This document shows, piece by piece, positions 824-7,839 of a DNA stretch of 13,892 bases. Position 1 is the first letter of the stretch, and every line of letters starts with the position of its first letter. The notes below the pieces were generated by a model, which was given only the letters and a program-made list of their open reading frames with translations, made no database searches and was not told the DNA's origin. The DNA is from a virus. The stretch lies in the UHGV virus genome UHGV-0110421. The stretch is one strand, 5' to 3'. The position numbers and the translations under genes were made by a program.

Positions 824-2141
824 TCTCGATATCCTCGTCGGTAATGGATGCCCCGATGCCGGTGACGTCAGAGTTTTCGCGCAGGTCGGTCATCGCCGCC
901 TTACGCGTCATCAATCCGTCGCCCAGCGCGGTACTGATCGCGTTGGTGGTGTTTACGGCCACCGTTGATCGGTCAACGTCTGACATTTGCCATAGCGGGT
1001 TAAACTCAAACGTGAAATCGTCCGGCAGCGGCTTTCCGAGTTCCGAGCGGTGCATAATGTCCAGTATCCGGCGCATCGGCAGCCGTAAGCGGCGCTCCTG
1101 CAATGAGCTCACCCGGTCGTAATAGTTGGCGAGGTCTGCATCACCAGTAGAGAAGCCTTTCGGGGATTGACCGAACAGGCGTATCAGCGGGATACCAACG
1201 GCACCGCTGATCTGCTCAGCAAACTGCGAAAGAATGTCATCCAGACCACTAAAGCTGTACTGGTGGGTTTCGAACTTATCCCGCGAGTCCATGAGCGTCA
1301 TACCTTCATTGCTCTGGAACTGGCGGATCAGGTCGATGTTCTTCAGCAACGCTTCGAACGCCGGGCCTCCAAGCGCGATAAGCTCGCGCAACTTCTCCAC
1401 GCTATAGGTACGCAGATGCGCTTTATAGACCAGCTGCGCCGCGCCGACAGTAGCGCTATCGAACGCAGTAAGCCGATCCCAGATACGCTCTACAACCGAC
1501 ATTCCCCATTCGTTTTCGGTCATCTTCTGCTGGAATGGCAGCGTGACGCCATCAAAGCGGATCAGGCGGCTGTGATGGATGCGCCAGGCCGGAATGCCCG
1601 TTGCGGTGGTCACCACGTCGTAAAACTCAGGCTTGCCGAGGTCCGGCCCCATCTCTTTAATGCGGCGTGTCAGCACCGGGTTAATCATCCAGCGGTCGAG
1701 CGGGAGAATGCCCTTAAACTTGCCCTCGCCAATGGTTTCGAGTCGCAGCGGGGTCATTGGTGCTTGCCCCTCGATCATGATGAAGCCGACCGCGCCGCCG
1801 TAGAGGCGCGACCATTTCAGCACGTCGTTCAGCGCATCCCAGATCTGCAACTCATCCAGTTGCGCTTCGAGGGTGCCACGGTCTTTGGCGTCAATCTCCG
1901 AAGTGATGCGAATGCCCTTTCGGGTCATATCGTCCGGGATAGCGTCGACCGCTTCACCGATAACCCACGAACCGCGATATGACCATTCCACCAGCATGCG
2001 GTTGCGGCTGGTGAAGTTCGCCCGGTAGGTCGATGCTGAATGCTGGTTAGGCGTCTGCATCCCAACGCGGGCGACGAAGTTCTCGTAGCCGTCAGCGGTG
2101 GCCTGTGCCGTTCGCTGAGAGGATTGCTTGTTTCGTGCCAT
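672..2141 (-). CDS. phage portal protein
   Basis: 489-aa ORF whose ATG overlaps the TerL stop (ATGA at 2141). Acidic Gly/Pro-rich C-terminal tail and position between TerL and head morphogenesis gene. Confidence 0.7.
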   Translation of the reverse strand: MARNKQSSQRTAQATADGYENFVARVGMQTPNQHSASTYRANFTSRNRMLVEWSYRGSWVIGEAVDAIPDDMTRKGIRITSEIDAKDRGTLEAQLDELQIWDALNDVLKWSRLYGGAVGFIMIEGQAPMTPLRLETIGEGKFKGILPLDRWMINPVLTRRIKEMGPDLGKPEFYDVVTTATGIPAWRIHHSRLIRFDGVTLPFQQKMTENEWGMSVVERIWDRLTAFDSATVGAAQLVYKAHLRTYSVEKLRELIALGGPAFEALLKNIDLIRQFQSNEGMTLMDSRDKFETHQYSFSGLDDILSQFAEQISGAVGIPLIRLFGQSPKGFSTGDADLANYYDRVSSLQERRLRLPMRRILDIMHRSELGKPLPDDFTFEFNPLWQMSDVDRSTVAVNTTNAISTALGDGLMTRKAAMTDLRENSDVTGIGASITDEDIENAEDEAPPGIGELGDKPPEPPGGDPISNEPTADSAGGRGYRKWSLRWFKR

Positions 2142-3763
2142 CAGGCCTGTCTCCCTAGCAGCTCCCAGATGTTCAGGGCTGAATTCATTGGCGCGTAGCT
2201 GATCATCACCGAGTCGGCGAGGTTCGGCGACTTGGTGCCATCAGGCTGTTTATCAACAACGATTTTCCCCACGCCATTAATGGAGTAGGTCGGCTGCGAC
2301 AGCTCAATGATGAGTTTGTCTTTGCTCGCCATGGCGCTGCTGATTGAGATGATTTCGTCCGGGTTGTAGGCCATGCCCTCAACCACGGCGCGATAGGTGT
2401 TCTGGAAAAGCTTGCGTAGCCACCACCAGCTCTGGGCCTTGGCGTTGGCGAAGAAGTCCTTGTTCAGGCGTGCGGCCTGTCCGTTGTCCCCGCGCACCGC
2501 TTCATCGTCCGGATCAAATACCGCGCCGCTACCACGAAACGGTGTGGCGAGTATTGACGGTCGGCGCGCTGCGTAACGCAGTTCGTTGATGGCGCGCGCA
2601 TCGCCGCGAACGCCAGCACCCAGGCCGTCCTCGTCGAAGCGAAACTCTTCGAGGTTGTCCTGTTCGCAAAAGCCGAAGACCTTCTCAACAGACTGGTAAA
2701 TGTCGCTGCCAACGCCGGACCATTCACGCACGTTCTCCAGAAGGAAGCCGTGACGGGTCGAAAAGGCATTTTTGTCCCGGCCTTCGTCGGCGACGTCCAT
2801 CGCGCCCAGTCGCTTGCCCGTTGGCTGAATACCAAGTTTGATATGCGCGTCGACGGCAGCCTGTACCCAGTCGGACGGGATCAGGACGCCTTCCGCAGAT
2901 GCGCTGTAGTTCAGGTCAAGTTCCTGCGCCACCACCACCGGATTGTCGATTTTCTCGCATTCCCTGCGATACCACTCTTCATCCTTGCGCGGGTCATTTC
3001 GCCAGTGGAATGTGAAAACCGGTATCTTCCCGCCGTGACGCTTCTGCGCGAACGGGTTCGCCATGCCGTTAACCGAACTCAGGTCGATACGGCAGCGGGT
3101 GGTTTGCGACAGCGCTGCGTCGATCAGCAGAGGACGCTGGAGGAATGCAGCCTCATCTACCAGGTAGAGCGTGGTACGGTCACCACGTCCGATATTGTCG
3201 CCAGCTTCGCCTTTGATGACCGCGCCCGTATCGGGAAACTCAACGCGCATGTACGGCGCGTGCTTCTTCTCGTCCCACGAACCGCGAAACTCGACGGGCA
3301 GCGTTTCCACGAATTTGCGCGCCTTCCAGAACAGCGCCTTCGGGTCACCGGTGCTATCGACGTATTCCTCTTTACGGGAGCCGAAGCCGATAACCATCTC
3401 TTTGTTGAAGAGGCAGAGCGAACAGGCCAGCCCGATCGCCGTCCAGCTGAGCCCCATTTCGCGGCTCTTTTCGGTGATGCCGTTCTCCAGCCGTTCGCGC
3501 CGCTCAATGATCCAGTGAATCCACTCTTCCTGTTTCGGGAACAGCAGAAAAGGGATTGTGACCGGCAGGCCATAATCGATGTTACGCGGGTCAGTAGTCA
3601 TACCCCAGTCGATGATGAACTGTGCCGGGTTGGTGCGGTAAAACTGCTTTAGTGCTGGCAGCATTTCAGGGTTCTGGCGAATGCGCTGTAAGCGCTCCAT
3701 CCGCCATTCAAAAACCATCTGGTAATCAGGGTTTCTGAAATCGAATTCAAACGGAAGAGGCAT
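2141..3763 (-). CDS. terL: terminase large subunit
   Basis: Large ORF with terminase-like ATPase/nuclease architecture, between the small-subunit gene and portal. Start placed at ATG 3763 (MPLPFEFDF...); the tracked start at 3820 is a TTG inside the AT-rich insert and is judged unlikely. Confidence 0.8.
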
Positions 3764-3834
3764 AAACAATTCCAGGCATTGAGTTTTTGCGTAACAAAGT
3801 TGATATTGTTTATGTACCAATTACAGGAGGTTTT

Positions 3835-4047
3835 ATGACACCAGCAGTTAGCGCTAAGTTGTTGGAATTAACCAACGACCTTAACAACGAAGTAAAATTG
3901 TCTGCAATTTATGCTCTCGGCGAGAGTGCTTCAGCAACGCCAGCTCATGTAAATCGCTTACTTGATTTATCTTCGGATCTAAATCACAACGTCAAAGTCG
4001 CTGCAATTAAAGCTCTTGGCCGTATTACTCGACCAAAACAAGCCTAG
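3835..4047 (+). CDS. small repeat protein (70 aa) with two tandem HEAT-like (PBS-lyase type) repeats; antisense moron
   Basis: ATG at 3835 with a consensus AGGAGG 4 nt upstream. Protein shows an internal duplication (LLELTNDLNNEVKLSAIYALGE / LLDLSSDLNHNVKVAAIKALGR). Segment is visibly AT-rich versus flanks and is the only + strand gene in the late operon. Confidence 0.5.
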   Translation: MTPAVSAKLLELTNDLNNEVKLSAIYALGESASATPAHVNRLLDLSSDLNHNVKVAAIKALGRITRPKQA

Positions 4048-4052
4048 AATCC

Positions 4053-4073
4053 ATAGCCGCAACATGCGGCTAT
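4053..4073. other. stem-loop between convergent genes (8-bp perfect stem ATAGCCGC / GCGGCTAT, 5-nt loop)
   Basis: Perfect inverted repeat sitting exactly between the stop of the + strand repeat-protein ORF and the stop of the minus-strand small terminase gene. No U-run on either side. Confidence 0.3.
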
Positions 4074-4546
4074 CACCCCATCATCTTGCGGTAAATCTCT
4101 GCGGCCTGATCTGCGGTGAGGTTGGTCGTCTCGGTCTTGATCGGGCCGCCATCCTTGCCAGTGCTTTCAACCTTCAGCTTATTGGTGTAAGCGTCGCCAA
4201 CCTCTTTCGCGGCCTGTTCAATCAGCTGCGCCGTCAGGGAGAAGTTTTTCATCCCCTCGGTTTTGGTTGCCATGCGGTCAAGCACGCGGAGGCGATAGGA
4301 TTTGTTCGCGATCGGAATGTCGCTGGTTTCGGTCAGGAACCGTTCGCGCGTAGCGTGGAACATCTCGATCCACTTTTTGGCGAGCGTCTTACCGCTGGCC
4401 TTCGTGGGGTCGTGAGATTCAGCCTGCTGGCGGGTGATCTTGATCCCGAATTCTTTTTGGACAGCCTCAACCACCTGCGTCGGCGTGTCATAGCACGCAA
4501 GCGACTGAATGATGAAGGCTTTCACATCAGGTTTTAATGCAGCCAT
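4073..4546 (-). CDS. terminase small subunit-like protein (DUF2280-type)
   Basis: 157-aa ORF upstream of TerL in the late operon, ATG at 4546 with a GGTGA Shine-Dalgarno-like motif. Family assignment is from memory. Confidence 0.55.
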   Translation of the reverse strand: MAALKPDVKAFIIQSLACYDTPTQVVEAVQKEFGIKITRQQAESHDPTKASGKTLAKKWIEMFHATRERFLTETSDIPIANKSYRLRVLDRMATKTEGMKNFSLTAQLIEQAAKEVGDAYTNKLKVESTGKDGGPIKTETTNLTADQAAEIYRKMMG

Positions 4547-4576: not shown

Positions 4577-5197
4577 TTAAGCCAGTCGCAGCATGCACGT
4601 CCCGCAAGCTCTGGCAATATCGAGATGAGCAACCTCCGCTGGCTGATTCGCCGCATCAATCATTTCCTGCACATCACGGCTCGCACCGTAACGGCGAACC
4701 ACGCCCACAAACTCTTCCACATCGTGGCCGCGTAGCTTCAGCTTTGGCAGCCCCTCTTGCGTGAACTTCGGCGCGCCAAACTCATCTGTCGCTTGGCAGA
4801 TGTGATAAAGCTCGTGCTCTATCAGGGCGCAAAACTCCAGATCAGAACATTGCGAGCAGTAATCAGCGGCCAGCGTGATGATGTACTGCGGCACCCTGCC
4901 GAACCATTCATACATCTGCTGCTCCATCCGCGCTTTCTGCCAGCCTCCAGCCCGCATTGCCACTTCTTCCGCCTGCCCCAGCACGGACCGCCCTTTCTTC
5001 TCGAAAGTGTTCGACGCCCAGAGAAAGCACAGATCCGCTTCAAGCAAATGCTGGTGATCAGGGTTGTAGAGGTCACCCTCATCGCTCAGGATGTGCTGAT
5101 TCAGCCACTCGCCAACGTCACTGGCGGGCATTATGCTGATGTACGGCTTCGGGTCAGGTGGCATCGTAAAATGCGCTGGTGGGTGTGGTCTGTTCAT
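4577..5197 (-). CDS. HExxH zinc-metallopeptidase-like accessory protein
   Basis: 206-aa ORF with an HELYH motif and Cys pairs (CSQCSD, CGTC) suggesting a metalloprotease with zinc-binding elements. Lies between the lysis cassette and the terminase genes. Confidence 0.45.
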   Translation of the reverse strand: MNRPHPPAHFTMPPDPKPYISIMPASDVGEWLNQHILSDEGDLYNPDHQHLLEADLCFLWASNTFEKKGRSVLGQAEEVAMRAGGWQKARMEQQMYEWFGRVPQYIITLAADYCSQCSDLEFCALIEHELYHICQATDEFGAPKFTQEGLPKLKLRGHDVEEFVGVVRRYGASRDVQEMIDAANQPAEVAHLDIARACGTCMLRLA

Positions 5198-5253
5198 GAA
5201 TAATTCCAGTGCTCCATTATCGAAGCCCCTCAGTGTGAAGGGCTTCTGTAATG

Positions 5254-5439
5254 TCAGTCCCGGACGAACGTAACCTTTGTGGTTATCATTCGCCGTACAA
5301 GGCGCGTCGCTTCGCGTTGCATTTCATCAATTACTTTTGGCGTCAGCGGCTGACGCGCATATTTGCGCTCAATCTCTGCAAAAATCCCGTTCAGCGCCTC
5401 GCTGTCTGGTGGGGTAACTTCAACGTTTAGCCTGGACAT
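5254..5439 (-). CDS. hypothetical small protein (61 aa)
   Basis: ATG at 5439 with GGAGG 8 nt upstream. No recognisable motif. Confidence 0.4.
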   Translation of the reverse strand: MSRLNVEVTPPDSEALNGIFAEIERKYARQPLTPKVIDEMQREATRLVRRMITTKVTFVRD

Positions 5440-5557
5440 CCTGCGGCCTCCACATTAGATAATTTTTCAAATTTATCCCTGAGAAGGGATTTTCATTACC
5501 TTATCCGCTTTCGGGGATAACCATTATCAAGCCCACCACAGATGAGCTTTGTAATGG

Positions 5558-5815
5558 CTATTTCACAGCACGAGTATTCTCTATTTCCCGAATGCTCGCT
5601 TTGTCTATGTTGCACTGCCCCAGAGCAGCGAGAAGGCTGACATTCAAATCCAGACTGGCTCCGTAGGTCAGCGGATCGGGAATGGCTGGCTGCGGCGTTT
5701 CAACGGTAAGACTTACTGGCAGCGGTACCGCCGGAACTTGCACGTAAACTGTTCGCGTATTGCCGCAGCCGGTTAGCAGCTGCAGCAGGAACAGGCTGGC
5801 GAGCGCAATCATCAT
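5558..5815 (-). CDS. o-spanin Rz1 (outer-membrane lipoprotein)
   Basis: ORF in an alternative frame overlapping the 3' end of Rz. Signal peptide plus lipobox (LLQLLTGC) and a Pro-rich mature region. Start placed at the internal Met-Met (MMIALASLF...). Confidence 0.55.
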   Translation of the reverse strand: MMIALASLFLLQLLTGCGNTRTVYVQVPAVPLPVSLTVETPQPAIPDPLTYGASLDLNVSLLAALGQCNIDKASIREIENTRAVK

Positions 5816-6092
5816 CCGCAACAGCCACTTTGATATCTGTCGCGGCTCCCGATGCGTCCAGTGTGATCTGCTGCTTTGCATGCTGATTTGCCTCAGTGAT
5901 GTTATTCATGATGGATACAGTTCGCAGGACGTTTGAAGTGATTGCTTCAGTAGAATCGGCGCGTTGCTCTGCACCATCAGCCCGCTTCTTCTCTTCCTGG
6001 TATTTGCTGTGATAGTGATTTGCTGACCAGATAAGGCCACCAGCCAACGCCACAACGAAACCTACTATCAGAACCAGATAACGAGTTGGCAT
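5700..6092 (-). CDS. i-spanin Rz
   Basis: N-terminal transmembrane segment (LVLIVGFVVALAGGLIW) followed by a charged region. ATG at 6092 overlaps the endolysin stop; a GTG at 6095 is the alternative start. Confidence 0.6.
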   Translation of the reverse strand: MPTRYLVLIVGFVVALAGGLIWSANHYHSKYQEEKKRADGAEQRADSTEAITSNVLRTVSIMNNITEANQHAKQQITLDASGAATDIKVAVADDDCARQPVPAAAANRLRQYANSLRASSGGTAASKSYR

Positions 6093-6613
6093 CACACACC
6101 ATCCAGGCAGAGCTGTTTCTCAGCACCACGACGCGTAACCAGTCCGGGAAGAACTTTCCCGCCTCCATACACCCATCGCGAAAACTGGTCGCACGCTTGC
6201 AAAACTTGCCCCTGTCGTAATAGCTGGAACATCGTCGATTTCTGCATTGCACCGCACCCGGCGTTAAACGTGATAGACGTTACTGCTGAAAACGTGTTGT
6301 CGCTGAGTTTGCGCCCATTACCGTATGAGTTAACACAGCGTTCAGCCTCCAGGATGTTTCTTTCCCAGTCAGCGGCAATCTGCACATCGGTCTTTCGCAC
6401 GCCAGCTTTTACACCGTGGGTATTGCCAACCCCATCAGTGAGTTTTGCAGCCGGACAAACATATGGCTCACGGCGACATCCTTCCGCATTACCGATTAAC
6501 TCCAGACCTCGCTCATTCGTGCGGACGTTACCGTTGCCCAGAACGATAGCGATAATCGCTGCTACAGAACAAAGAGCGCCAACGGCTCCGCCTTTTTTTG
6601 CCAGTTGAGCCAT
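6092..6613 (-). CDS. R: SAR endolysin (phage 21 R-type lysozyme, GH24)
   Basis: Gly/Ala-rich weakly hydrophobic N-terminal signal-anchor-release segment, then a T4-lysozyme-like core (ELIGNAEGCRREPYVCPAAKLTDGVGNTHG). C-terminus resembles phage 21 R. Start ATG overlaps the holin stop. Confidence 0.85.
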   Translation of the reverse strand: MAQLAKKGGAVGALCSVAAIIAIVLGNGNVRTNERGLELIGNAEGCRREPYVCPAAKLTDGVGNTHGVKAGVRKTDVQIAADWERNILEAERCVNSYGNGRKLSDNTFSAVTSITFNAGCGAMQKSTMFQLLRQGQVLQACDQFSRWVYGGGKVLPGLVTRRGAEKQLCLDGV

Positions 6614-7149: not shown

Positions 7150-7839
7150 TTAGTTCATTTCTGCAATACCTTGCTGCGAATAAGCAGCTTTTTGTTGTGA
7201 ACGAGATCGCGAAACATGGAGCAGGGATTGTGAGTCAAGGCTCTTATACAGACGCGTCATAGCGTCATAATGCTCCACGTAGTTCTGTGACCAGTTTGTT
7301 TTGTTAACGCCCACCAGCGCAGCGAGATCACCATACTGATACACATCGTGCCCGGACAATTCGGCTTTCACATCCTGCGCCGCCAGCCAAATCAATTGAC
7401 GCAACCGTTCGATGGTCTTTTTCGCGAGCCGCTTTCCGGCAAGCGATTGCTGAAACTCACTCCACGTCCATTGGGTTATCGTGACCTGATGCTCCCAAAC
7501 GATGTTCCCGCTGTAACTCCACAGCAACCAAGCTTTCTGATGTTCATCGAGTGACAACAGCGCGCGGCGCCAGGACGCTGTCACAAATTCAATCGGCTGC
7601 ACCAGCGGGATATGAGAACCTTTTGCGTGCGACTGTTTACCGGGGATCGGCGGATTATCCAGCGTAATCATTTTCCCGGTAACCTCATCCAGCACCCGGA
7701 GCTTTTTTCGCTTGAACGTGTTCGTGTCGAACTGAGCATTCTCCAGCCAGGCCATTAACTGCCCTTTGGTTGCACCACTAAAATCTGCAGTGGCCGCCAT
7801 CAGCTGCTGTCGAACGTATTCCAAATATTGCTGTGTCAC
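7150..7839 (-). CDS. Q: late-gene antitermination protein Q
   Basis: 229-aa ORF immediately downstream of rusA and upstream of terminators plus lysis cassette. GTG start at 7839 overlaps the rusA stop (GTGA) with GGAGGG upstream. Family call is by synteny and recollection. Confidence 0.6.

Follow-up and report, generated by a model that had tools for sequence, protein, structure and literature searches.

The HNH protein gp74 stimulates cos cleavage by the HK97 terminase (PMC9410871) and is a point of reference for the locus analysed here. Another is the Pfam family PF18894 (PhageMetallopep, 'putative phage metallopeptidase'), one protein of which has been treated as an accessory gene (PMC12860723) and another, in phage ZF40, as a "transposase" (PMC3391216); our literature search found no experimental or functional work on any member of the family, JBD44 gp16 included. 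The label 'transposase' or 'putative transposase' is carried by the homologs in NC_019522 (ZF40), NC_030929 (JBD44 gp16) and NC_024365 (phiPSA1), and likewise by those in HQ201308, KT968831 and NC_031098. The discussion of Mu-like transposition in the ZF40 paper follows from that label, which PHROGs also attaches to phrog_513. We regard it as probably an annotation error that has spread through PHROG 513.

The window, by which we mean the whole stretch of 13,892 nucleotides that was analysed, comes from a lambdoid prophage of E. coli, of which it is the late region, and is 99.9% identical to AR_0118 (NZ_CP020048, an E. coli chromosome). Its minus strand reads Q, terminator-like hairpins, holin, lysozyme, Rz/Rz1, a small protein (small61), an HExxH protein (MP) and a DUF2280 protein, beyond which lie the large terminase, a DUF1073 portal and a Mu-F-like head protein. 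The principal features are as follows.

7150–7839, minus strand: antiterminator Q (Pfam Phage_antiter_Q, E 2e-97)
7082–7027, minus strand: two terminator-like hairpins, after Q
5700–6095, minus strand: Rz, a spanin, which with Rz1 ends the lysis cassette
5558–5881, minus strand: Rz1, a spanin, which with Rz forms the upstream edge of a variable slot
5254–5439, minus strand: small61, 61 aa, basic, phrog_12811
4577–5197, minus strand: MP, 206 aa, acidic, PF18894
4547–4576, minus strand: MP–TerS spacer, 30 nt, 37% G+C, holding the TerS ribosome-binding site
4073–4546, minus strand: DUF2280 protein (TerS), in small-terminase position, beginning 30 nt past the MP stop
2141–3763, minus strand: large terminase (TerL), with the PGAP start at MPLPFEFDF

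The initial annotation had called small61 and MP as two minus-strand open reading frames; both were recovered at the same coordinates, and on the 99.9% identical chromosome PGAP places the ends of both genes identically, naming MP 'putative metallopeptidase' and small61 'hypothetical protein'. MP matches phrog_513 (2.9e-97) and small61 matches phrog_12811 (2e-34), with 3504 and 31 homologous clusters, respectively, and dN/dS of small61 is 0.08–0.40 against 17 variants; on these grounds both are real genes rather than chance reading frames. A further reading frame at 3787–4047, on the plus strand and thus opposite to its neighbors, encodes 86 aa of HEAT repeats (Pfam HEAT_2, 34.2 bits; cutoff 27.7) in the 252-nt gap between TerS and TerL. 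It was found in only 7 of 80 close loci (defined below), TerS abuts TerL in those that lack it, and it looks like a genuine opposite-strand moron within the terminase operon.

MP is a full-length match to PF18894 (E 4.8e-43; 146.9 bits against a gathering cutoff of 23.7), with residues 30–184 covering positions 2–134 of the 134-position profile. Its homologs fall into 3504 clusters when grouped at 90% identity, and 50% identity leaves 810 representatives. The HELYH motif occupies residues 128–132 (nt 4802–4816), and conservation was read from 57 full-length relatives of 33–53% identity, among which H48, H128, E129, H132, H158, G171, C198 and G199 are invariant, and D159, E161, W31, H50, W60 and W86 nearly so. 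An AlphaFold2 model built with this alignment (pLDDT 93.6) contains a zincin core, and it shows the arrangement that characterizes clan MA, the core fold with HExxH on an active-site helix beside a beta-sheet. Candidates for the third zinc ligand are H158 (invariant) and D159 and E161 (near-invariant), all within GHDVEEF, and C198 (invariant). The earlier proposal that the larger protein is a putative zinc metallopeptidase is thus borne out as a prediction by the family match, the motif and the modeled fold. The cysteine pairs described as flanking HELYH fared less well: they are present in MP, but the CSQC pair is not conserved in the 57 relatives, and among the cysteines at residues 57, 114, 117, 123, 134, 198 and 201 only C198 is invariant, with C201 usually retained. 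This C-terminal C198 may regulate or complete the metal site.

Searches beyond the family returned little. PDB sequence searches with MP, its 57-sequence profile, TerS and the small61 profile found nothing significant; Foldseek found no match to the MP model in the PDB and only other PF18894 proteins in BFVD; and NCBIfam and PADLOC yielded no meaningful matches. SprT-like (PF10263) and WLM profiles did not match MP even at E up to 10, the SprT-like profile giving sub-threshold matches in 4 of the 57 relatives (best E 0.012), and MP has no HNH Pfam match, its fold matches being zincins. MP is acidic (pI 5.1) and a DNA-binding surface is not evident in it, a point against the reading favored below. 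Profile, model and empty PDB searches together describe a predicted zincin-fold protein that has an intact metal and catalytic motif and no close characterized relative.

About one-fifth of the family representatives (P0161, P0162, P0164, P0169, P0173 and others) carry an N-terminal extension of 60–100 residues with a conserved helix-turn-helix-like motif, Y-S/T...AL..L....GD...AAK...VP...L..W, and the extension resembles the N-terminus of the helix-turn-helix (HTH) protein found in the TerS position of locus L124. These extended forms look real among metagenomic representatives. Most 'long' MP reading frames in isolate genomes were set aside as GC-rich over-extensions; the only convincing one is that of L240 (3854–4675), where DUF2280 still lies downstream.

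The gene that follows MP is remarkably constant in identity. DUF2280 lies downstream of MP in 245 of 254 loci overall (174 viral loci and 80 bacterial species), and directly 3′ of it in 80/80 close viral loci, which were chosen on MP at 80–100% identity. Among the 174 viral loci the distance is at most 200 nt in 158 and at most about 1 kb in 10 more, with a spacing of around 31 nt seen most often. In the bacterial species it is at most 200 nt in 48 and 243–777 nt in 29; these wider-spaced loci come mostly from Alphaproteobacteria, with some from Acidobacteriota, Armatimonadota and Chloroflexota. In the GenBank phage collection, 144 records contain MP and 328 contain DUF2280, 181 of the latter being Salinibacter phages, and counts by genus for MP and DUF2280 agree exactly in Acinetobacter (62/62), Pseudomonas (44/44), Vibrio (8/8) and Burkholderia (7/7). 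Pairwise identities of MP and TerS are tightly correlated (Pearson 0.95, Spearman 0.84), those of TerS and TerL more loosely (0.84 and 0.60), and MP together with DUF2280 is joined to at least three unrelated TerL/head modules. MP and the DUF2280 TerS therefore form a heritable two-gene cassette. The initial annotation had seen MP as an accessory gene, or moron, and this view is contradicted by its distribution: in the 80 close loci and in the loci chosen on small61, MP is present whenever the DUF2280 TerS is, and the two are lost together.

The most telling result is a natural exchange of TerS beside one TerL. In 79 loci selected on small61 alone, MP and DUF2280 are both present in 35 and both absent in 44, and neither occurs without the other. 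In 18 of the 44, TerL is 95–97% identical to that of the window, and a Terminase_2 TerS (PF03592, E 6e-40) stands in place of MP and DUF2280. One prophage of the Terminase_2 type, which comes from a complete genome, matches the prophage of the window in its set of head genes. The two small-terminase proteins resemble each other at one end.

4073–4189, minus strand: shared TerS tail, the C-terminal 39 residues (TerS residues 119–157); in L296 at 4234–4350

Over these last 39 residues, the DUF2280 TerS and the Terminase_2 TerS of L296 are 62% identical. The C-terminal end of small terminases is the expected site of the TerL-binding tail, and to judge from the alignment the shared segment seems to be such a TerL-binding tail in portable form, fitted to two otherwise unrelated TerS bodies.

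Several consequences follow from the exchange. The DUF2280 protein lies directly upstream of TerL and is interchangeable with a recognized Terminase_2 TerS, so that, by position and exchange, it acts here as a putative small terminase. MP, for its part, is dispensable for this TerL and this head type. And what is exchanged against the single TerS gene is MP and DUF2280 as a unit. Because the two arrangements occur with the same TerL, they constitute a natural swap that could be rebuilt in the laboratory.

The two genes of the initial annotation belong to unrelated units, small61 being a separate optional cassette described below. On balance, we favor a reading in which MP is a zinc-dependent hydrolase that would act with the DUF2280 TerS when packaging starts, as a third terminase-associated component in the place held by HNH gp74 in HK97-like phages. 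Judged by its fold, its likeliest chemistry would be proteolysis as in SprT or minigluzincins, and it could cleave TerS itself or, in the way of SprT and Wss1 enzymes, a protein attached to the DNA substrate of packaging. A stronger version, which we put forward tentatively and would not yet bet on, makes PF18894 a hitherto unrecognized third subunit or obligate helper of DUF2280 terminases, a zinc hydrolase needed to start packaging, such that one classical TerS would equal MP plus DUF2280 in function. If this were true, the packaging role of PF18894 would extend across a large set of temperate proteobacterial phages.

Adjacent genes are co-inherited anyway, and the coupling between MP and DUF2280 has limits on both sides. 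In the 181 Salinibacter phage records (Salinibacter phage 3_10, L093, 3432–4480, for instance), a DUF2280 homolog (33% identity) lies directly before the large terminase; the gene ahead of it encodes a multi-pass membrane protein of 172 aa, and MP is absent. DUF2280 is thus able to function where MP is lacking. Conversely, 6 of the 174 viral loci have MP and no DUF2280. In five, MP stands directly before another small protein in the TerS position, namely phrog_15261 in L112, L133, L137 and L138 and the HTH protein in L124; the sixth is Bordetella phage PHB04, whose MP is encoded 2 kb away from the terminase genes and has no C-terminal Cys tail. These five exceptions indicate that MP is tied to the place just before TerS, which is mostly but not exclusively DUF2280. 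Acinetobacter phages have a gene upstream of MP that is annotated 'HNH endonuclease'; we discarded this as evidence, the protein having no Pfam match and only a weak match to phrog_559.

Could the two genes travel together for reasons unconnected with the MP protein? If the packaging site lay inside the MP gene, exchanges of TerS would carry MP along whatever MP does. Packaging (pac) sites often lie within terminase genes or a short way before them, P22, SPP1 and P1 being examples, and the 3′ end of MP contains a candidate.

4595–4667, minus strand: low-diversity stretch of about 75 nt, MP codons ~177–202, defined by third-codon-position diversity

Across 57 distinct MP–TerS sequences, third-position diversity drops 6–8 fold over codons 177–202 (permutation p<0.001), with 8/24 third positions polymorphic there against 263/341 elsewhere, and the RNA of this stretch is less structured than shuffled sequences. 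The drop suggests a nucleotide-level constraint 30–120 nt upstream of TerS, and the stretch is possibly an embedded packaging site or a TerS translation-initiation region. An explanation by linkage in cis only, in which the DUF2280 packaging site lies in or near the MP 3′ end and MP has an unrelated job, for example as a late protease cutting a host or defence protein, would also accommodate the Salinibacter phages, with their DUF2280 and no MP, and a recombinant (L061) that pairs an MP of 97% identity with a TerS of 72%, from which it follows that MP tolerates a diverged partner. Against it, the catalytic residues of MP are invariant at 33–53% identity across hundreds of lineages, the behavior of a core gene and unlike that of patchy anti-defence genes. 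The pair also persists in many alphaproteobacterial loci with 240–780 nt between MP and TerS, and MP occurs directly before non-DUF2280 genes in the TerS position. Neither MP nor small61 matches a PADLOC defence-system model, a search that covers host defence proteins and not anti-defence ones; for MP, this too speaks against the explanation, which we judge unlikely, though it is the main rival of the favored reading.

That MP might instead be a metal-dependent nuclease like YbeY, aiding DNA cutting at packaging initiation as a functional analog of HNH gp74, is suggested by its genomic position, which is that of HNH in HK97-like phages. We find this doubtful: the better structural matches of MP are peptidases, its motif is HExxH and not the HxxxHxxxxxH of YbeY, and in related loci TerL itself retains a nuclease domain (Terminase_6C in L112).

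A role in head maturation or in processing virion proteins of this head type would suit a putative protease gene that starts the head/packaging operon, all the more as the head genes of this prophage include none annotated as a prohead protease. The same head module, with TerL 95–97% identical, nevertheless occurs without MP, and MP plus DUF2280 is conversely combined with at least three unrelated TerL/head modules, making this role very improbable. The module common to the MP-less prophages comprises the DUF1073 portal, the Mu-F-like protein, DUF2213, Gp24, DUF2184, STY1053 and DUF4054; the TerS-region sequence of these prophages matches 499 E. coli genomes, 6 of them over at least 80% of the query.

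The second of the two unrelated units is small61, a basic protein (pI 9.5) encoded at 52% G+C against 53.6% for the window, a composition like that of its neighbors. IERKY, T33, REA and TKVT are its invariant motifs. The predicted structure (pLDDT 93.9) is beta-alpha-alpha-beta, with strands at residues 2–9 and 53–60 and helices at 13–26 and 34–51. In the model, the strand-helix-helix start recalls ribbon-helix-helix DNA binders, a resemblance for which we found no Pfam or PDB sequence match, and small61 is possibly a small basic DNA-binding protein.

Its distribution is independent of MP. small61 accompanies MP in 38 of the 80 close loci, and MP accompanies small61 in 35 of the 79 loci chosen on small61. 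In the 44 that lack MP, small61 still comes right after Rz/Rz1 and is followed by different packaging genes; in the MP loci that lack small61, the slot holds Rha (PF09669, 16 loci), KilA-N (~11 loci) or varied unknowns. P22 has a comparable variable late-operon slot, the rha region that separates its lysis genes from gene 3. The 'classic moron site' of the initial annotation is accordingly an apt description of the slot of small61 and not of MP, and variable presence among similar phages, one mark of a moron, is seen in small61 only. In one related locus (L045, 1118–1321), a 67-aa reading frame occupying this slot has the C-terminal EATRLVRRMITTKVT(F/Y) of small61 and a different N-terminal half, which suggests, from sequence comparison, a recombination junction inside the gene. 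We also considered small61 as a remnant of a Terminase_2 N-terminus, since the L045 protein has the C-terminal 15 residues of small61, and rejected this, as it has no Pfam support.

The region upstream of small61 agrees in part with what had been described. The GGAGG ribosome-binding site is at 5447–5451, 7 nt before the ATG, and the DNA preceding the gene (5440–5521, minus strand) is AT-rich, with 41.5% G+C against 53.6% in the window. Two small hairpins reported there exist as 6-bp inverted repeats, but the region folds no better than shuffled sequences (z −0.75). A different, larger hairpin, which the initial annotation had not described, stands out and occurs twice, once on either side of small61.

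5522–5556, minus strand: junction hairpin, copy 2, just 3′ of the Rz1 stop (−24.2 kcal/mol, z −4.4)
5215–5253, minus strand: junction hairpin, copy 1, directly 5′ of the MP ribosome-binding site (−27.1 kcal/mol, z −7.2)

Both copies have the form CATTAC-AR-stem-loop-stem-(C)GATAATG, for which no copies are expected by chance. In most close loci the hairpin stands before MP regardless of the gene upstream, and its inner stem varies among loci with pairing kept, double changes affecting 6 of 11 pairs. In related loci it sometimes lies at other late-gene junctions (twice in L072). Neither copy in the window is followed by a U-tract, which sets the hairpin apart from classical terminators; it may serve in the processing or stability of RNA, or mark a junction between modules. 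A crude consensus scan of the minus strand found no sigma-70-like promoter upstream of small61, and MP and small61 are thus probably read from the Q-dependent late transcript. small61 showed neither a promoter of its own in that scan nor a U-tract at the flanking hairpins, nor is its composition atypical, as would mark a moron. Bracketed by the two hairpin copies, small61 is a self-contained optional cassette, independent of MP.

These observations leave almost nothing of the idea that MP and small61 form a protease-plus-small-partner accessory module, a regulatory or anti-defence moron. The two are adjacent and on the same strand, at a site with variable cargo, and small61 is a small protein under selection that is well folded in its model; yet small61 is missing from 42 of 80 loci whose MP is 80–100% identical, MP is missing from 44 of 79 small61 loci, cluster numbers are 31 against 3504, the conserved hairpin between them also precedes MP when the slot holds other genes, and small61 has no promoter-like site before it, so that the pairing, undone by independent assortment, is the least credible of the explanations considered. 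The two proteins do not both match structural or assembly proteins of the packaging module, the outcome that the initial annotation had set against its own proposal, but MP is by context a packaging-module gene.

Compared with described systems, small61 resembles a moron in its slot, which after Rz/Rz1 is variable in relatives (Rha, KilA-N and others), and departs from morons in that neither a promoter nor a U-tract terminator of its own was detected and its G+C is like that of its neighbors. MP shares its predicted core with the minigluzincins (projannalysin, proabylysin, selecase) and with M48/M56, to which it is 10–14% identical, with no relationship at the sequence level. Beyond the minigluzincin core it has some 110 further residues, namely an N-terminal part with conserved RPxPP, W31 and H48xH50, and a helical C-terminal part that ends in the invariant Cys. 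It differs from SprT-like proteins, Spartan and Wss1 in being acidic, in having no SprT-like Pfam match and in that no zinc-ribbon or DNA-binding domain was recognized.

Within its own family, PF18894/PHROG 513, MP is an ordinary full-length member with HExxH. PF18894 itself is already known, catalogued and uncharacterized, and the locus, one of its members plus an optional small gene, is ordinary. What is new and testable is that PF18894 is nearly always the upstream partner of a DUF2280 TerS and is exchanged with it as a unit. This context rule strengthens the case for DUF2280 as a small terminase, sets the annotation of many phage genomes right and gives PF18894 a testable role in DNA packaging. 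A described counterpart is HNH gp74 of HK97-like phages: gp74 and, by prediction, MP are both small metal-binding enzymes whose genes adjoin those of the terminase where the packaging operon begins, and, as they are unrelated in fold and motif, MP is a positional analog of gp74 only.
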